The notes under the pieces were generated by a model. It saw only the letters and a list, made by a program, of their open reading frames with translations. It was not told the origin of the DNA and searched no databases. The position numbers and the translations under genes are program-made. Below, piece after piece: positions 1,571 to 64,000 of a DNA stretch of 64,000 nt; positions within the stretch are counted from its first letter, which is position 1, and each line of letters begins with the position of its first letter. The DNA comes from Alphaproteobacteria bacterium (GTDB lineage Bacteria; Pseudomonadota; Alphaproteobacteria; UBA828): positions 96,001 through 160,000 of the forward strand of contig CAXXVO010000005.1 in assembly GCA_963422645.2 (NCBI GenBank). The letters are read 5' to 3'.

Positions 1571-4086
1571 CTCAGACTTCCTGACCTCGTGATGCTGGCT
1601 GTTCTGGGCAGCGTGCCGGGAACTCCTTGAATTCTGATACATTTCGGTTGTTTCAGGCGGTTTTTCGCTGGGTGTCGCGCCCGAGGTCTGATATTATAAT
1701 TTGATACCAATTGCACGGTCTCAACCATGCCCAGTACCCTCCCAATGTGCCCTCCAGAGGCGGTCTCGATCGGCAACAGCTGCTTCGCCGTCCTGATCTC
1801 GGACGACACCTTCACCTACTTTTCCAACCTCATTCCCTTTGACAGCCACGCCGCCGATGACCGCACGGCCATGCTCTTGCGGATCGGCCGCCTCGCGGCG
1901 ATCAGCGCGGTCTCGCCGCAGGAACTGGCTGACGCTTTCGCTGTCTCGCGCGCGACGGTGCAGCGCGCACGACGGCGCTACCTGGCCGAGGGCGAAGCGG
2001 GGTTCATGAAGCCCCGGCGCGGTCGCGGGCCGTCGGTGTTCACTCCGGAGTTGGCGGAGAAGGCGACGGCGTTGCTGGCATCGGGCCTGAGCGGCTCTGC
2101 GGCGGCCCGGGTTCTCGGCGTGTCAGCGCCATCGGTCAACAAGTGGCGCCGTCAGGGACTGATCGGCAACACGGAGGCGGATGGGGAGCCCGGACGCTCA
2201 GCGCTGGCTGCGCCGCCTGACGCGGGTGCGGCTCCTGAAGGCCGTGTCGATGAAGAGAGTACCGGTGCCCCGGGGCCGGAGACGGCGCCGGGGCTGGAAG
2301 CGCAGCCGCAAACGGATCGCAGCGCGCGCGATCGGCGGGACCGGCAGGCGCCGATGGGGCGTGCGACTTGCGATGTTCCGGCTCGGGTTCTGGCCAGTTG
2401 TGGACAGGCGGGGCCGGTCGAACCGCAGTTCGCCGCCGCCGCCCGCGGTGTCCGCTTCGGCGGCGTGCTCGCCGCCCTGCCGGCCCTGCTGAAGGAAGGT
2501 CTTCTCTCCGAGACCGGTCTCCTGCCATTGCTGCCGAAGGGCTATTACGGCTTGCCTACGATCCTGCTCTTCCTGGCCTTCATGACCTTGGCGCGGGTGC
2601 GCAACCCCGAGAGCCTGCGCTACCAGGCGCCGGGCGAATGGGGCGCCATTCTCGGCCTCGATCGCTGCCCCGAGGTCAAGACGCTGCGCCGCAAGATCGC
2701 TCTCATCGCCGACGACGAGGCCGGCGTGCGGGCGTGGCAGCTCGCCCTTGCCAGGCGCTGGCAGGCGCCGACGAGCCGGAGCTCTGGGCGACGCTGGCCA
2801 TCGACGGGCACGTCAAGGTCTACTCCGGCCGCAAGGGGCGCTTGCCCAAGCACTTCGTCTCGCGCGAGAAGCTGTGCCTGCCGGCGAGCGCCAGCTACTG
2901 GATCAACGCTCTGGGCGGCAAGCGCTGCTCTGTCTGCACAAGCCGCTGGACCCGAAGATGGTCGCGGCCATCGAAGCCGACGTGGTGCCGGCGCTGCAGG
3001 AGCTTGGGATCGTTGGCGCCGGGGCGCCGGACCTGACCGCCGAGCATCCCGGCCAGCCGGCGCTCACCCTGGTCTTCGACCGCGAGGGCTGGAGCCCGGA
3101 TCTGTTCCGCCGGCTGGCGAGGCGCGGCGTCGCCTGCCTGACCTGGCACAAGAACTTCAGGGGCGAGGACTGGCCGGCCGAGGACTTCGGCGCGATGACC
3201 GTTCCCATTCACGGACCGGCGGCGGACGGCAGCGCCACCATGCGGCTGGCTGAGAAGCCGGTGACGTTGCCGAACGGCTTCAGGGTGCGCCAGATCCGCC
3301 GCCTGCTCGACAACGGCCGTCAGGTGCCGCTGATCACCACCGATCCGCACAAGCCGATGGCTGAGGTTGCGGGCGCCATGTTCTCGCGCTGGTCGCAGGA
3401 GAACTTCTTCAAGTACATGCGTGACGAGTTCAATCTCGACGCCCTGCCGACCCACGAGCTCGAGCCTCTCGATCCCGCCGCCATGGTCGTCAACCCGCTG
3501 CGGCGGGCCTATGACAAGGCAATCCATCGCCTCGACCGCCAGCTTGGCCGCCTGCGCAACCGCATCGCCGACACGGCCCGGAAGAAGCAGCCGACGGCGG
3601 AACTCAGGAGGGAAGTCAGGGACCTCCAGGATGTCCGCGACATCGTCAGGGCCAGCCGCAGGGAGACGCCCAAGCACTGCCGGGCCGGCGACCTCGACGA
3701 AGCCGAGCAGCTCGATGCCTTGCCCGCGCGCGAGCGCCTCCTCCTCGACGTCATCCGGATGATCGCCTACCGCGCCGAAACCCGCATGATGCTTCCCGTC
3801 ATGCAGGCGCAGGGCCACAAGCCCCATCCCCGGAAACTGCTTCAAGCGCTGCTCACCGCCGATGCCGACATCCTGCCGGATCCTGGCAATGGCCTCCTGC
3901 GGGTCCACATTCTTGGCCTCGCAAACGACGCCTGCGACCGTTGGATCGATGCGGTTCTGAGCGACCTGAACGCCACCGAAACGGTCTTCCCCGGCACCCG
4001 TCTGCGCATAGTCTACGACATCGACGGGGCCTCGGAATCCGCGCGGCTCGTGTCACCTAAAATCAGCAGAGGTCAGGAAGTCTGAG
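1571..4086 (+). mobile_element. Insertion sequence with 18-bp perfect terminal inverted repeats and a large DDE-type transposase
   Basis: CTCAGACTTCCTGACCTC (1571-1588) is the reverse complement of GAGGTCAGGAAGTCTGAG (4069-4086). GT flanks both sides, a possible 2-bp duplication. Confidence 0.85.
1727..4085 (+). pseudogene. HTH-containing DDE transposase split over three frames
   Basis: N-terminal HTHs, then IDGHVKVY, VFDREGW and RWSQENFFK in successive frames. Frameshifts near 2766 and 2921. Confidence 0.8.
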
Positions 4087-6147: not shown

Positions 6148-6621
6148 CGGGCGGCGCAGCACCAGCATGGCCGACGCGCACCGTACCCGCCGGCTCGCCC
6201 ATATCGACTGCCCGGGCGGCGGGCAGGTCTGGGTCGATGGCACCACGCTTTACATCGGCCACATGCGCTGGCCGTCGGGCACCACCATCGTCGACGTGGC
6301 CGACCCTGCGAACCCGCGCATCCTCGCGCGGATCGAGCTGCCGGAGGGCTGGCACTCGCACAAGGTCCGCACCGCGAACGGCGTCATGCTGGTCAATCAC
6401 GAGCGCCTCGGCGGCGGCGGCAACGACGCCAACGGGTTCGGCGGCGGGCTCGGCATCTACGACGTTTCGAATCCCGCCAAGCCGAACCTCGTCACCAAGT
6501 GGCGCACCGCCGGCAAGGGCGTGCACCGCTTCACCTTCGACGGGCGCTACGCCTACATCTCGCCGACTGCCGAGGGCTACGTCGGCAACATCGTGATGAT
6601 CCTCGATCTCGCCGACCCGGC

Positions 6622-8188
6622 TGTAGGGGGACGAAAGTCATTGCGAATCCGGAAGATGCCGGGAAGAAGGCGGAAGAAGGCGGACGGTCAAGGGGTTGGC
6701 GGCGTTTCCGGGGTCTGGCGGGCCGGACGAAAGTCTTTGCGAATCCGGCCCGGAAAGGGCCGTGAATTGGCTGGAAGCGGGGATTTTCGGGGCGTTTCAG
6801 GGGTGCTGAAAGGCCTGTAAATCGGGGCGGTTCCGGGGCCCAGACCAGGGCGTTGCAAAGCATGGAGTGGCGGAAAATGTTGTGCGACATTGGGGCCGTC
6901 TCTGGCGATTGTGACCGTCACCACGAGACAAAGCCCCCCGGCGAACTTCTTGCAAGTTCGCCGAGGGGCACCCGCCCCAAAACCTCAACAAATCCGAGCG
7001 GATCAGGCCCCGATCCCCGCTGAAAGACCGCGCGCGCTCACCGCCGGCGCAAGCGGCGTCAGCCGACACACCCAGCTCACCGTGCCCTCCCCGGTCTCCG
7101 CCGGCTATATCGTCATCGAGTGGGGCTGATCGCGATGCGCCGCACCCTCGTCCCCGCAGGCGGCGGCATCGACAGCACCGCCCTCGCCCTCCTCGTCCTG
7201 CGCGAGACCGAAGACGAGGTCGTCCTCTCCTACTACCGCGAGCCGGCCCGCGAACTCCCGGAGCGCATCGCCCGCGAGCAGGCCGCAAGCGAGGCCGTCG
7301 CAGACTGGCTCTCCCGCAACGTCCGGCCCGTGCGCCACGTCAGCCGCGACGCCCTGCGCCTCGACCTCGACGCCGGCGCCGAATACCCGATCAGGGGCGG
7401 GAGAGGGTGGGAGGGCGTCTGCGACCCCACATTCGGCCCCTGGGGCCTCGACCGGTACGCAACCCACGCCGACGAGGCCGAGCGCCACCGCGCCGACCGG
7501 GTGATGCTCGGCATCACCTCGTGGGACACCGCCGACGACATGCACCGCATGTACTGGTATCCCGTCTACCGCGCGCGCACCGCCGTCCCCATGGAACTCC
7601 CCTTCTTCCCCGGCTGGGAGGACGGCGCGCAGTGGCCGCCGTCGCGGGACGACCCCTTCGGACCCGTCGCCGGGCGCTTCATGCTCCAGGCCCTGCTCCC
7701 GCCCGGGCTGGAGGCGCTCACCTGGCGATGCACCGTCGCGGCAGAGCCCTGCGGACGCTGCCCCCGATGCCGCCTCAACGCCTTCTTCGAGCGCTTCTGC
7801 CGGGGACGCCCGGCGGACCAGGTCGCCCGCATCGACGACGCCCTCGAACGACACCGCGGCGCAGGCCGATGGTACGCCGACGCCGACCCCGGAAGATGGA
7901 CCGATCACGACGGATACGACGCCGCAGAACGCGCCGTCGAAGACCCCGAATGGTGGAAGGCCGAACTCGAACGCCCGTGCCGCCCCGGCGCCCGCCCCGG
8001 TCCCGACCGCGCCTGAAACCCCCACGCACCGCCCGTGCACGGGCCCCGAAACCCCCGCGCAGCGCTCCTTCATGGCCCATGCACAGGCCGGTTTTTCCAG
8101 CCCGGTTCAGCCCCGAAAACCAGCCGATTTTCCAGGCCATTCGCAAAGACTTCCGGCCGCGATTCGCAAAGACTTCCGGCCGGCTACA
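6622..8188 (+). mobile_element. Non-autonomous Mu/Tn7-like mini-transposon (1567 bp)
   Basis: TGTAG...CTACA termini; 5-bp duplication CCGGC (6617-6621, 8189-8193); repeated GRAAGTCWTTGCGAAT motifs at both ends; no transposase. Confidence 0.92.
7135..8016 (+). CDS. QueC-like PP-loop ATP pyrophosphatase with a Cys4 zinc motif
   Basis: N-terminal TLVPAGGGIDST (SGGxDS variant); C-terminal TWRC-x6-CGRCPRCRL. Confidence 0.75.
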   Translation: MRRTLVPAGGGIDSTALALLVLRETEDEVVLSYYREPARELPERIAREQAASEAVADWLSRNVRPVRHVSRDALRLDLDAGAEYPIRGGRGWEGVCDPTFGPWGLDRYATHADEAERHRADRVMLGITSWDTADDMHRMYWYPVYRARTAVPMELPFFPGWEDGAQWPPSRDDPFGPVAGRFMLQALLPPGLEALTWRCTVAAEPCGRCPRCRLNAFFERFCRGRPADQVARIDDALERHRGAGRWYADADPGRWTDHDGYDAAERAVEDPEWWKAELERPCRPGARPGPDRA

Positions 8189-8878
8189 CCGGCGCTGCCG
8201 CAGGAGGTGGGCCGCTGGTGGATCCCCGGCCAGTGGCAGGCGGGCGGCGAGGAGTACCCTTGGGAGAACTGGGTGGCGCCCCGCTGCCATCACCCGCTCC
8301 GCCTCGGCGACCGGCTCTACGTCAGCTACTGGCACCACGGCCTCTTCATCCTCGACATCGAGGACATGACCCGGCCGAAGCACGTTGCCGGCGTCAACAC
8401 CAGCCCCGCCTTCCCGCACCCCACCCACACCTGCCTGCCCTTCCCCTACAAGCTCAAGGGCCGGCACATCATGGTGGTGGCGGACGAGGACGTGGCGAAG
8501 CTCTGGCCCTCGCCGCCGGCCTTCGCCTGGGTCTACGACATCACCGACGAGCGCTGCCCCATCCCCATCAGCACCATCCACGTGGATGGAGTCGATCAGG
8601 ATGGCAGCCCCCAGCCCGACATGACCGGCTGCCACCAGCCCTCGGACCGATTCACCGGCAACGTCGTGCCCTTCGCCTGGTTCGCCCAGGGCCTGCGCCT
8701 GGTGGACGTGTCGGACCCCTTCGCGCCCTGCGAGGTCGCACGCTACGTCCCCGACCCGCCCGAGGGATGCGAGCGCGCCTCCTCCAACGACGTCACCGTC
8801 GACGACCGCGGCCTCATCTACCTGATCGACCGTCAGCGCGGCGTCGACATCATCGAGACCGACGCTCTCTGAACCGCC

Positions 8879-53220: not shown

Positions 53221-53473
53221 TTCTTTCTTCATCAGCAAACGAAGCGGACGCAATCAGCACGCTGCCCAGAATTGTCGCCGATGCGACCGTGGCTCTAATC
53301 AAATGCTTCATTGGTTCCTCCCAGTTGACATTCGACCTCCGAACGTATGTGGCGTGAGGTCCAATTGCTCTCGCATTCAGCCATAGAGGAAAGGGGGGGG
53401 ACTCCCCACCATTTGTAAAGAGGGCTCCGGCACGCGCGAGTAGGCGTGCTTGGCACTCTGTGTGGTTTCTGCG

Positions 53474-54727
53474 TCACGCTGCATGGGCTTGTCTCGCGAA
53501 GGCGGGATTGAAGACGGTCTGGTTTTCGAGCATCGCGCAGGCGACGCCGAGCAGGCGGTCGGCGACGCCGCGAAGTGCACGAGCGTGGCCGTGGCCGCGG
53601 GCACGCAGCGCGGCGTATTTCGCCTTGCTGACGGGGTCGTGCTGTATCGCGACCCCGGCCCAGTGGTAGACGGCGTCCTGGAGCCGGTTGTGAGACGCGA
53701 GACGTCGTATGACGATGAGCGACTTGCCGGACCGCTTGGTCACGGGAGCGACGCCGGACAGGCATCGCAAGGCCTGGTAGTCTCGCCGGCGCAGAGGATC
53801 GTGTGCTTCTGCGAGCAGCGTGGCGAGGACGATCCTGCCGACGCCGGGAAGCGAGCTCAGGATTTCCACGTCACGCTGCGCATTTGTTCCCGGCTCGTCC
53901 TCCGGGGAGGCTGCCGATCGGGACAGCGTTGCGCTCAGACGGTCGAGTTCGCCATAGGCCTTGGCGAGCTGCTGCGCGATGACGGCAAGCTGCGAGAAGA
54001 CGACCTCGATATGAGCGACTGCGGCCTCGGTCGTGCCGGGTGCGACGGACACCGCCTGCTCGCGCATGATCCGGAGCGCGGTTTCGGCATCGATCCGGCG
54101 CACCCGATGGCGCTTCAGGAGCTTGGCGACGGTGGCGGCGCGGACGCGCTGCGCCTTTGCGGGCGTCGGCGCAAGGCACCAGAGCTCGCGAACCCAGGCC
54201 CTGGTGAGATCGCTTTCGACCTTGAGGAGCTGCGGATAGTAGCGCCAGAGCTGCTGGCGGGCCCGGTTCACCAGCCGGGTCCTGTCGCGGGTCAGGTCGT
54301 TGGCGATCCGCGACCACTCGCGCAGCTCGACGATCTCCGGCGCTGCCGGGTCCAGGCGCCGGAACGCATGGCCATCGGTCCGCAGGGCATCGGCGAGCAC
54401 GCGGGCGTCGCGGCGATCGTCCTTGGCGCCGGCCGGCGAGAAGCGGTCGCGGAAGCGGTCGAGCTGCTTCGGATTCACGGAGTGGACCGTGAAGCCGCGT
54501 TCCATCATGGTCTCGACGACGGGTCCGTGCGGGATCTCGATGGCGACCCCGATCGCGTGCGGGTCGACGCCCGCCCTGGCGAGGATCCAGGCCGCCATCT
54601 CTGCGAGACCGGCTCCGCCGTGACTGAAGGCCCGCTCGGCCGACACCTCGCCAGCGCTGTCGACAACGCAGACCTGGTGGGTCTCCGAGCCCCAGTCGAT
54701 CCCCGCAAAATACTCAAGCATGTGCAT
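53474..54727 (-). CDS. IS110 DEDD recombinase
   Basis: GIDWG, AIE, KDDRRDA, SLPGVG, GVAPVTKRSGK. Confidence 0.95.
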   Translation of the reverse strand: MHMLEYFAGIDWGSETHQVCVVDSAGEVSAERAFSHGGAGLAEMAAWILARAGVDPHAIGVAIEIPHGPVVETMMERGFTVHSVNPKQLDRFRDRFSPAGAKDDRRDARVLADALRTDGHAFRRLDPAAPEIVELREWSRIANDLTRDRTRLVNRARQQLWRYYPQLLKVESDLTRAWVRELWCLAPTPAKAQRVRAATVAKLLKRHRVRRIDAETALRIMREQAVSVAPGTTEAAVAHIEVVFSQLAVIAQQLAKAYGELDRLSATLSRSAASPEDEPGTNAQRDVEILSSLPGVGRIVLATLLAEAHDPLRRRDYQALRCLSGVAPVTKRSGKSLIVIRRLASHNRLQDAVYHWAGVAIQHDPVSKAKYAALRARGHGHARALRGVADRLLGVACAMLENQTVFNPAFARQAHAA

Positions 54728-61604: not shown

Positions 61605-61728
61605 CCTACGACAAGGCGAGGGGGGCCGAGATCGTGTCCCTGGATCTGCCGAACGGGGTGCTGGGGGCGCCGATGACCTACCTGCTCGACGGCGTGCAGC
61701 ACATCGCGTTGACCGTCGGGGGGGGGGG
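61598..61728 (+). pseudogene. C-terminal fragment of a PQQ-dependent dehydrogenase-like gene
   Basis: VAYDKARGAEIVSLDLP...GAPMTYLLDGVQHIALTVGG. Confidence 0.7.
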
Positions 61729-62240
61729 ACTCCCCACCATTTGTAAAGAGGGCTCCGGCACGCGCGAGTAGGCGTGCTTGGCACTCTGTGTGGTTTCTGC
61801 GTCACGCTGCATGGGCTTGTCTCGCGAAGGCGGGATTGAAGACGGTCTGGTTTTCGAGCATCGCGCAGGCAACGCCGAGCAGGCGGTCGGCGACGCCGCG
61901 AAGTGCACGAGCGTGGCCGTGGCCGCGGGCACGCAGCGCGGCGTATTTCGCCTTGCTGACGGGGTCGTGCTGTATCGCGACCCCGGCCCAGTGGTAGACG
62001 GCGTCCTGGAGCCGGTTGTGAGACGCGAGACGTCGTATGACGATGAGCGACTTGCCGGACCGCTTGGTCACGGGAGCGACGCCGGACAGGCATCGCAAGG
62101 CCTGGTAGTCTCGCCGGCGCAGAGGATCGTGTGCTTCTGCGAGCAGCGTGGCGAGGACGATCCTGCCGACGCCGGGAAGCGAGCTCAGGATTTCCACGTC
62201 ACGCTGCGCATTTGTTCCCGGCTCGTCCTCCGGGGAGGCT
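61727..62240 (-). mobile_element. IS110-family element 2, partial copy interrupted by the Mu-like element
   Basis: Matches 53399 onward (one substitution seen) and is cut at ...GGAGGCT|TGTAG. Confidence 0.92.
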
Positions 62241-62412
62241 TGTAGCCGGCCGAAAGTCTTTGCGAATCGCGGCCGGAAGTCTTTGCGAATGGCCTGGAAA
62301 ATCGTCTGGTTTTCGGGGCTGAATCGGGCTGGAAAAACCGGCCTGTGCATGGGCCGTGAAGGAGCGCTGCGCGGGGGGTTCAGGGCCCGTGCACGGGCGG
62401 TGCGTGAGGGTT

Positions 62413-63297
62413 TCAGGCGCGGTCGGGACCGGGGCGGGCGCCGGGGCGGCACGGGCGTTCGAGTTCGGCCTTCCACCATTCGGGGTCTTCGACGGCGCGT
62501 TCTGCGGCGTCGTATCCGTCGTGACCGGTCCATCTTCCGGGGTCGGCGTCGGCGTACCATCGGCCTGCGCCGCGGTGTCGTTCGAGGGCGTCGTCGATGC
62601 GGGCGATCCCGTCCGCCGGGCGTCCCCGGCAGAAGCGCTCGAAGAAGGCGTTGAGGCGGCATCGGGGGCAGCGTCCGCAGGGCTCTGCCGCGACGGTGCA
62701 TCGCCAGGTGAGCGCCTCCAGCCCGGGCGGGAGCAGGGCCTGGAGCATGAAGCGCCCGGCGACGGGTCCGAAGGGGTCGTCCCGCGACGGCGGCCACTGC
62801 GCGCCGTCCTCCCAGCCGGGGAAGAAGGGGAGTTCCATGGGGACGGCGGTGCGCGCGCGGTAGACGGGATACCAGTACATGCGGTGCATGTCGTCGGCGG
62901 TGTCCCACGAGGTGATGCCGAGCATCACCCGGTCGGCGCGGTGGCGCTCGGCCTCGTCGGCGTGGGTTGCGTACCGGTCGAGGCCCCAGGGGCCGAATGT
63001 GGGGTCGCAGACGCCCTCCCACCCTCTCCCGTCCCTGATCGGGTATCCGGCGCCGGCATCGAGGTCGAGGCGCAGGGCGTCGCGCGACACGTGGCGCACG
63101 GGCCGGACGTTGCGGGAGAGCCAGTCTGCGACGGCCTCGCTTGCGGCCTGCTCGCGGGCGATGCGCGCGGGCAGTTCGCGGGCCGGCTCGCGGTAGTAGG
63201 AGAGGACGACCTCGTCTTCGGTCTCGCGCAGGACGAGGAGGGCGAGGGCGGTGCTGTCGATGCCGCCGCCTGCGGGGACGAGGGTGCGTCTTGGAAT
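62413..63297 (-). CDS. QueC-like PP-loop protein, copy 2; no ATG (ATT start or pseudogene)
   Basis: Six internal substitutions relative to copy 1; the start region is replaced. Confidence 0.6.
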   Translation of the reverse strand: MPRRTLVPAGGGIDSTALALLVLRETEDEVVLSYYREPARELPARIAREQAASEAVADWLSRNVRPVRHVSRDALRLDLDAGAGYPIRDGRGWEGVCDPTFGPWGLDRYATHADEAERHRADRVMLGITSWDTADDMHRMYWYPVYRARTAVPMELPFFPGWEDGAQWPPSRDDPFGPVAGRFMLQALLPPGLEALTWRCTVAAEPCGRCPRCRLNAFFERFCRGRPADGIARIDDALERHRGAGRWYADADPGRWTGHDGYDAAERAVEDPEWWKAELERPCRPGARPGPDRA

Positions 63298-63298
63298 C

Positions 63299-64000
63299 CT
63301 AGCCCCACTCGATGACGATATAGCCGGCGGAGACCGGGGAGGGCACGGTGAGCTGGGTGTGTCGGCTGACGCCGCTTGCGCCGGCGGGGGCGGAGGAGGT
63401 TCCGTCTGCGCCGTCTGCGCCGTTGCGTCCGTAGACCGCTCTCTTGCCGCCCTTGCCGCCGCGCGCCGTGCCGCCGAGGACGGCGGTGTTGCTGCCGTCG
63501 CCGCCGTCGGTGCCGGGGCGCGCCGTGCTGGTAAGGAGGGTGGGCGGTCCGTCCGTGCCGTCCACGCCGTTGCTTCCCACGGACCACCAGTAGGAGCTGC
63601 CCGGCGAGACCGCGATCTCGAAGTAGATGAAGCCGCCGCCGCCGCCGTCGCCGCCACGCCAGGTGGTGCGCCTGTCGGGGCCCCTGCCGCCGGAGGTGAT
63701 GCGGGTATAGCTGCCGCCGTCGCCGGCGGCGCCGCCCCGCAACTGCACGCGCACGCGGGTCACGCCCGTGGGCGCGACCCAGTACCCGGAGTCGGGCGTG
63801 GTGAAGGTCTTGCGCCCGCGCGGCGTGGGCCGGGGCGCCGGCTCGGGCGCGGGACGCGGCGGCGCCGTGCGCTCGCTGAGGTTGGCCAGCCGCGTGCGCT
63901 CGGCCGCGCTGAACACCTCGCCCCGCATCTGGCGGAAGGGGTGCAGGCCGGAGCCGTCGAGGGTGGCGACGCCGCCCGGATCGCCGAAGGCGTCGATCAT
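63299..64000 (-). CDS. Gly-rich phage tail-fibre-like protein, C-terminal part
   Basis: GGVATLDGSG; KTFTTP.SG.W.AP.GVTRVRVQL.GG...GGGGG...IAVSPG...GYIVIEW pattern. Confidence 0.7.
   Translation of the reverse strand: MIDAFGDPGGVATLDGSGLHPFRQMRGEVFSAAERTRLANLSERTAPPRPAPEPAPRPTPRGRKTFTTPDSGYWVAPTGVTRVRVQLRGGAAGDGGSYTRITSGGRGPDRRTTWRGGDGGGGGFIYFEIAVSPGSSYWWSVGSNGVDGTDGPPTLLTSTARPGTDGGDGSNTAVLGGTARGGKGGKRAVYGRNGADGADGTSSAPAGASGVSRHTQLTVPSPVSAGYIVIEWG

Follow-up and report, generated by a model that had tools for sequence, protein, structure and literature searches.

A single-gene Mu-like element in an alphaproteobacterial genome looks like the stump of a decayed prophage

A 64,000-nucleotide stretch of the genome of an Alphaproteobacteria bacterium of lineage UBA828 (GenBank assembly GCA_963422645.2, contig CAXXVO010000005.1, positions 96,001 to 160,000; hereafter the window) contains, at positions 6622-8188, a short insert that has the ends of a transposable phage and only one intact gene, encoding a QueC-like protein. 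Is this insert a small mobile element that depends on a transposase supplied by others, or is it what was left of a larger element that decayed where it stands? The sequence-only reading that drew attention to the locus had offered both answers and had proposed the element as a candidate for an undescribed system. On the basis of comparisons with the rest of the genome we conclude that the segment probably arose by decay in place of a Mu-like prophage, in which insertion of another transposon (here called transposon B) was followed by a deletion at a microhomology. It looks like an immobile stump of a known Mu-like type, a case of ordinary genome decay and not a new mobile system.

The outer limits of the insert are defined by the following features.

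6622-8188, Mu-like element remnant, a 1,567-bp insert that starts with TGTAG and ends with CTACA
6617-6621, left copy of the 5-bp target-site duplication, CCGGC, exact
8189-8193, right copy of the 5-bp target-site duplication, CCGGC, exact
6167-6621, plus strand, 5' part of the interrupted LVIVD-repeat host gene (open reading frame and translation)
8189-8872, plus strand, 3' part of the interrupted LVIVD-repeat host gene

The window reads GACCCGGC/TGTAGGGGGACGAAAGTCATTGCGAATCC across the left boundary at 6622 and CTTCCGGCCGGCTACA/CCGGCGCT across the right boundary at 8188. When the insert and one copy of CCGGC are removed, the open reading frames 6167-6621 and 8189-8872 fuse in frame. The ortholog from a genome of the same genus (G038) is unbroken across the site: it reads ILDLADPAQPQEVGRWW where the two halves in the window read ILDLADPA and PALPQEVGRWW, and its read-through stretch is LADPAQPQEVGRWW, compared with LADPA/PALPQEVGRWW in the window. 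The uninterrupted ortholog P0042 matches the Pfam family LVIVD at 2.1e-16, and the LVIVD-repeat gene was found in all 21 of 21 genomes of the genus. An empty site was observed directly in a contig of sequencing run X7, from another organism (depth 138), which joins 6616 to 8189 and omits 1,572 bases, with five letters that fit either side; a joint at these positions with five ambiguous letters is the predicted empty site. The TGTAG...CTACA ends and the exact CCGGC duplication that had been read from the sequence are therefore corroborated by the boundary letters, by the reading frame of the two gene halves and by the empty site.

The interior of the insert is composite. Its left arm had been described as a single piece of 419 bp, fused at 7040/7041 to the end of a tail-like gene. 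Genome-wide BLAST divides this arm at element position 217: the first part, 1-217, has matches at about two dozen loci (98-99%), and the second, 216-419, at 23 other loci (99.5-100%). The left arm consists of two unrelated pieces, of which only the first is an end of the Mu-like element, the second being a terminus of transposon B. The parts of the insert, together with a complete copy of B, are listed below.

6622-6838, plus strand, true left end of the Mu-like element, with terminus TGTAG; 24 termini of the same type in the genome
6837-7040, minus strand, terminal 204 bp of transposon B, which ends CGCGCGCGCTCA at 7040
7041-7129, plus strand, remnant of a glycine-rich tail-fibre gene, its last 28 codons and stop; the sole tail-gene piece kept in this copy
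7135-8016, plus strand, intact QueC-like PP-loop gene of 293 amino acids (aa), with a GGGIDS loop and a C199..C206xxC209xxC212 cluster
8017-8188, plus strand, right end of the element, carrying minus-strand repeats at 8139-8152 and 8162-8175, 23 bp apart, and terminus CTACA
G000:C8:135589-140777 (locus L007), full copy of transposon B

At the 23 other loci the same interior lies upstream of the 204-bp piece, and the flank beyond CGCGCGCGCTCA (GCGCTCA) differs each time; a constant interior with a variable flank identifies the piece as a mobile-element terminus. The complete transposon B measures 5,189 bp, and the genome has at least 12 full copies of it at 99.8-100%. It encodes a 523-aa transposase with HTH_32 and rve domains, a 277-aa AAA_22 ATPase, an AAA_25 protein and a DUF3991/Toprim protein, and its termini, TGAGCGCGCGC...GCGCACGCTCA, are unlike the TGTAG ends. 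With primase- and helicase-like genes (AAA_25 is RecA/DnaB-like) and such activity, transposon B may merit a study of its own.

Alignment with an intact left arm and an intact copy of B places the crossover between left arm and B interior at 6837-6838, with a 2-nt GG overlap. An intact sibling left arm diverges from the window sequence after 6838, and an intact right arm continues uninterrupted across 7040/7041. Because the right arm reads across 7041 and B ends at 7040, we interpret 7040/7041 as the boundary of a B insertion in the phage tail gene, and 6837 as the endpoint of a deletion. The deletion junction is thus at about 6837 and not at the fusion point described earlier. That some 29 codons of a tail gene precede the QueC-like open reading frame agrees with the open reading frames and with the siblings of the tail gene: 87 nt of the remnant are 100% identical to 63301-63387, and full-length siblings match Pfam Gly_rich_2 at 2.7e-9.

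These junctions suggest a history of three steps. A phage genome would have inserted into the LVIVD-repeat gene by MuA-type cut-and-join, creating the CCGGC duplication. The 5.2-kb transposon B would then have landed in the last tail-fibre gene, 28 codons before the stop (7040/7041). Finally, a single illegitimate deletion at the GG overlap at 6837-6838 would have fused left-arm position 217 with internal sequence of B, removing all the phage genes in between and all of B except 204 bp. We infer the order of the last two steps. The survivors would be the parts outside the deletion, namely the left end with its two putative transposase sites and the last 1.15 kb of the right arm. The QueC-like gene would have been retained because, as the terminal gene of the tail arm, it lay within the surviving 1.15 kb, and not because it was chosen as cargo.

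The copy number of the element and of its junctions bears on the choice between decay and mobility. Genome-wide BLAST with 6622-8188 found no second full-length copy, the sole match being the element itself, and the junctions at 6837 and 7040/7041 each occur once in the genome. Among 20 duplication-flanked elements of the same family (described below), none of the 190 pairs shares an internal structure, the best reciprocal single-match coverage being 0.51. No deletion derivative is seen twice, which favours independent decay of each insertion and sides with the sequence-only suggestion of an element eroded in place. Its other suggestion, a satellite that can be mobilised in trans, finds no copy with the same junction at another duplication. 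In addition, the stump of B inside the element fits an accident and not a selected cargo architecture.

A non-autonomous mini-Mu satellite, which arrived small, can be moved in trans by the transposase of a helper phage and carries the QueC-like gene as cargo, nevertheless has some points in its favor. Both ends of the element retain the terminal sequence and two repeats each, and none of the approximately 40 insertions of the family keeps the early genes, which would fit the spread of derivatives that lack the early region. Run X1, whose species label is the same as that of the best holder, moreover yields a contig that has the empty-site joint at low depth (6.1, compared with about 16 for the flanks). 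The shorter side of this joint has only 25 letters, below the side-length caution limit of the search tool, so the signal is weak, and a related strain could be its source. Given the single-copy junctions, the absence of shared structure among the duplication-flanked pairs and the dead stump of another transposon within the element, we consider the satellite unlikely. A helper with a cognate transposase was not found in the 99.58%-complete assembly with the queries used; a helper phage from outside is possible.

The internal structure could also be an artefact of assembly, a chimera produced when repeats of a very repeat-rich draft were joined. The genome contains ample material for such joins (67 IS21-type rve matches, some 20 copies of B and further repeats of high copy number), six left and right ends pair by duplication across contigs, and among the short-read contigs listed none bridges 6837 or 7040 by 31 letters on both sides, which is evidence neither way. 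However, at 6837 internal left-arm sequence meets internal B sequence with only two bases in common, whereas repeat collapse yields joins inside shared sequence. Run X1 contains 0.81 of the sampled words from 6400-8400, and the outer boundaries are independently backed by the empty site, so that an artefact appears very improbable. No RNA data set is listed as containing 6400-8400.

The organization of the ends points to the type of the parent element. A subterminal repeat of 14-16 nt, AAGTC(A/T)TTGCGAAT, occurs six times in the window compared with 0.34 expected, and none of 100 shuffles reached six. Four of these repeats are in the element at 6622-8188 and two are at 62253-62291. Those at the right end were given above; those at the left end are the following.

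6635-6648 and 6731-6744, left-end repeats AAGTC(A/T)TTGCGAAT, 96 bp apart

Counted from the terminus, the repeats are located at 14 and 110 on the left and at 14 and 37 on the right, all in the same orientation. The element therefore has the asymmetric arrays with several repeats per end (putative transposase-binding sites), as well as the TG...CA termini and the 5-bp duplication, of Mu-like transposable phages. In Mu itself the left sites are spaced apart and the right sites are adjacent. TG..CA ends, a 5-bp duplication and asymmetric end-repeat arrays are common to Tn7, Tn5053 and Mu, and a remnant of a Tn7- or Tn5053-type transposon would share them. We give such a transposon almost no credence as the source of the segment: phage head, tail or lysis genes are present in every sibling with internal sequence, no TnsA/B/C- or TniA/B/Q-like gene set adjoins these ends, and the only nearby pair of rve and AAA_22 genes is that of transposon B, whose ends differ.

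The segment is one of at least 40 Mu-like transposable-phage insertions in this genome. A search of the whole genome with the terminal 27-mer, allowing up to two substitutions, gave 85 termini of the family, which fall into several subtypes and comprise 44 left-type and 41 right-type ends. In 20 cases a left and a right end on one contig are flanked by an exact 5-bp duplication; these elements are 893-22,672 bp long, and the one at 6622-8188 is the third smallest. Another six left/right pairs, such as left end C6:164266 with right end C5:244783, share a duplication but lie on different contigs or far apart, where 0.5 would be expected by chance. These six indicate either that repeats recombined with one another or that the assembly was joined through them.

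The gene content of the siblings is that of a phage. The longest left arm (9.5 kb, C6:351607-363749) encodes a GemA-like protein, an HNH protein, an endolysin, the small and large terminase subunits, a portal and MuF, with all genes directed toward the left end; a sibling GemA-like protein is 38% identical to a PF06252 protein. The longest right arms encode tail J (FNIII-A_GpJ, Phage-tail_3), one or two glycine-rich fibre proteins and the QueC-like protein, all toward the right end, and the 22.7-kb copy additionally has a Dam methylase gene, a capsid-like gene (weak match) and a Phage_tail_S virion-morphogenesis gene. Only the siblings have late and middle genes of the Mu type (DUF3486-type small terminase, portal, MuF, GemA, virion morphogenesis). 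These sibling copies agree with the earlier proposal of an internal-deletion derivative of a transposable prophage.

Another member of the family lies at the far end of the window.

62241-64000, minus strand, right arm belonging to a second and longer copy, with its right end, the QueC-like gene at about 62413-63294 and a glycine-rich tail gene

As the sequence-only reading had noticed, the right arm of the element recurs there: 7041-8188 is found inverted at 62241-63387, with 1,048 nt at 98% and 87 nt at 100%. The second copy continues past the window end into tail-J and an IS21 copy. No left end with a duplication matching the copy at 62241 is present in the assembly, and the other half of this element has therefore been lost or moved. 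The flank up to 62240 (61721-62240) is a 99.8% copy of 53393-53912, which runs on uninterrupted at 53913, and a third partial copy of this repeat is on contig C16. Four right arms of the family show a tandem order, in which a glycine-rich gene and a 106-nt start of the QueC-like gene are followed by a second glycine-rich gene and a full QueC-like gene.

C7:154392-157179, C8:147543-150332, C8:583393-586169 and C10:463180-464690, tandem right arms

Across these arms the fibre proteins are 61-100% identical and the QueC-like proteins 93-100%.

Several observations, the low-depth joint of run X1 among them, weigh against in-place decay of a Mu-like prophage. With a single copy, the element could already have been small on arrival, and the assembly is the only source for both internal junctions. 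The genome has 16 near-full copies of the QueC-like gene, 13 of them without a frameshift, and among these 13 the median ratio of nonsynonymous to synonymous polymorphism (pN/pS) is about 0.5, weak evidence of constraint. Further points concern the transposition genes. A DDE (rve) transposase A and a MuB-type ATPase are absent from the window copy and from every sibling, and no MuA/TnsB- or MuB/TnsC-type gene linked to these ends was found in the assembly (23 contigs, 99.58% complete, 8.48% contamination) with the queries used. PF09299 and PF02316 had no matches in the genome, weak negatives in that the control genomes were silent as well, and PF07352 (Gam) had none. The transposase, ATPase and Gam of a related viral contig (G051) and the early proteins of Microcystis phage Mae-JY22, both discussed below, gave no tblastn match in the genome.

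The missing linked transposase weakens the Mu/Tn7-type assignment made by the sequence-only reading, of which the end layout is upheld; the ends and the late genes are our reason for retaining it, and we infer a Mu-type transposase for the family. The genome has 114 rve (PF00665) matches, which comprise the 67 of IS21 type, about 20 of transposon B, IS3-like elements and a few single matches not individually checked. The regions C1, C6:1-9200, C10:170-215 kb and C13:74-112 kb were considered as Mu-like prophages and none of them is one. In the viral contig G051, the first 499 residues of a putative 592-aa transposase have no Pfam rve match and a six-frame rve search of the contig was empty (L048-L050); the transposases of these phages may have diverged beyond the reach of PF00665.

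The single intact gene of the segment begins 6 nt past the tail-gene stop and ends 172 nt before the terminus, and 23 of the 29 non-variant right ends in the genome retain part of it. Its product is QueC-like at the superfamily level and is not a QueC. No Pfam family, PF06508 included, matches the protein at E<=0.01, and a match to phrog_1550 ('QueC-like', 4.6e-5) covers residues 10-64 only. A word-indexed search returned only two clusters, and 39 family representatives were found among 1.84 billion proteins. Of 33 aligned members, 10 match QueC and nine match ATP_bind_3, all weakly (best QueC E 1.5e-4). The AlphaFold model (predicted local distance difference test score 87.5, predicted template modelling (TM) score 0.88) contains an extra helical C-terminal part. 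Its best Foldseek matches in the PDB are QueC (2pg3, 3bl5) and Cap9 (9nto_B), with E of about 1e-4 and target TM of 0.57-0.62, in keeping with a QueC fold, and the family profile matches 2pg3 at 2.9e-6. The nearest ESM-Atlas clusters are viral, with PF06508 in some members, and by feature search the family is mostly viral.

The canonical QueC signature, as given in one study, comprises an SGGxDS loop, a C(x)8CxxCxxC zinc motif and the substrate motifs YxQxHxxE, VPxRN and YPDC (PMC13329287). The protein studied here has the loop GGGIDS, compared with a family consensus of SGGxDS, and a cluster C199-x6-C206-x2-C209-x2-C212, in which three of the four cysteines are nearly invariant in the 33 sequences. 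No YxQxHxxE can be recognised at the aligned position, and the conserved P85-x-R87 and W130-D131 may be the counterparts of VPxRN and YPDC, as judged by eye without structural superposition. The predicted product is a divergent enzyme of the PP-loop/zinc-cluster type, from a small family that is mainly viral.

According to the same study, the QueC scaffold has been repurposed repeatedly (PMC13329287). QueC (PF06508), Cap9 of type IV CBASS (cyclic oligonucleotide-based antiphage signalling system) and QatC share with our protein the PP-loop and a C-terminal cysteine cluster. It differs from QueC in the first residue of the loop, in a spacing of six instead of eight residues after the first cysteine and in the additional helical part. 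Unlike Cap9 and QatC, it has no Cap10, CD-NTase or QatABD partner beside its gene, which stands alone after a tail-fibre gene, in two prophage types. The second type is an unrelated prophage in another species of the genus, where a 53%-identical homolog follows virion and fibre-like genes and precedes an endolysin gene; the gene therefore travels as an accessory gene of the late region. It is a rare one, found in two of 48 other genomes of the order, and the protein had no match in the phage collection, nor in IMG/VR with a single-protein query.

The family resembles Mu in its TG..CA termini, its 5-bp duplication and the spaced left and adjacent right sites, in the Mu-type late genes of the siblings (DUF3486-like small terminase, MuF, GemA-like, virion morphogenesis) and in having an accessory gene last before the right end. 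It differs in that no copy here has A or B genes, Gam or a repressor, and in that the family is two-armed, the packaging genes being read toward one terminus and those for capsid and tail toward the opposite one, whereas the genes of Mu are read in a single direction. Its terminal gene is QueC-like and not mom. In contrast to laboratory mini-Mu, the mini form found here appears accidental and includes the stump of a foreign transposon.

The divergent gene order has a parallel outside this genome. The IMG/VR contig G051 (43.6 kb, CheckV 95%) has a portal 55% identical to that of the family, and the portal of Microcystis phage Mae-JY22 (PP438414.1) is 52% identical. On one strand of G051 Dam, fibres, J, tape measure and capsid read to one end; on the other strand the putative transposase, HU, an AAA_22 ATPase, Gam, GemA, lysis genes, terS, terL, portal and MuF read to the other end. 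The same two-armed order in G051 indicates that the divergent layout is not a local rearrangement. G051 differs in having GATAAAT-type end repeats, with no TGTAG-type inverted repeat at the contig ends, and its terminal tail-arm gene encodes a Dam (D12) methylase and not a QueC-like protein. The family portal was found in none of 20 other genomes of the genus and was matched by only one record in a 50,697-record phage collection.

The place of the QueC-like gene, last in the late or tail arm and adjoining the right end, is that of mom in Mu, and in G051 the D12 methylase, one of the Dam-type methylases that replace mom in Mu-like prophages, has the same place. The QueC-like protein is unrelated in sequence and in fold to Mom and to these methylases, and only its position points to a DNA-modifying role. 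Judging from this position and from the Dam gene in the same place in the viral contig, the gene may have a phage modification (anti-restriction-type) function. FluMu-type prophages are reported to lack a Mom-encoding gene (PMC3299994).

The terminal motif of the family is also present in two alphaproteobacterial records of metagenome-assembled genomes (G049 and G050; L036-L040), with 5 and 17 ends at up to two mismatches. The record with 17 ends has a single rve match, far from any end, and the locus L039 contains a 276-aa QueC-like gene and a tail-J-like stretch. In G050, two left-type ends enclose 29.5 kb; this interval was considered as a full-length copy and set aside, its open reading frames being host-like (open reading frame listing, without family search). 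It is conceivable, although in our opinion improbable, that the approximately 40 duplication-flanked copies lacking early genes are a population of non-autonomous phage derivatives moved in trans by an infecting helper, with the QueC-like gene kept for a modification or defence function that serves the host or the element; the alphaproteobacterial record with many ends and one rve match would then be a second case.

The insertion-sequence load of the genome is heavy. An IS21-family element of 2,382 bp, for example at C6:161734-164115 just past the window end, provides 67 rve matches, and most of its copies are 100% identical. In three to four phage remnants IS21 is located at left-arm position 198 (or 187), in both orientations and with differing fragments, which we read as an insertion hotspot and not as inheritance. 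Additional high-copy repeats are represented in the window by 35584-38094/56970-59477 (40 near-full copies), 33792-35564/45072-46844 (48) and 2748-4085 (86).

If the segment is, as we think probable, the result of decay of a Mu-like prophage in place, then a mini-element that lacks a transposase and carries one cargo gene would be a by-product of nested insertion and deletion, and this example guards against reading such stumps as new systems. The family to which it belongs is part of the Mu-like phages with a two-armed gene order, which have few characterised relatives, and its QueC-like protein is encoded at the place that DNA-modification genes occupy in Mu-like phages. Both the family context and the rarity of the gene deserve mention. 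With its 85 termini, all copies without early genes, and its large insertion-sequence load, this genome is good material for the study of how transposable prophages become inactivated.

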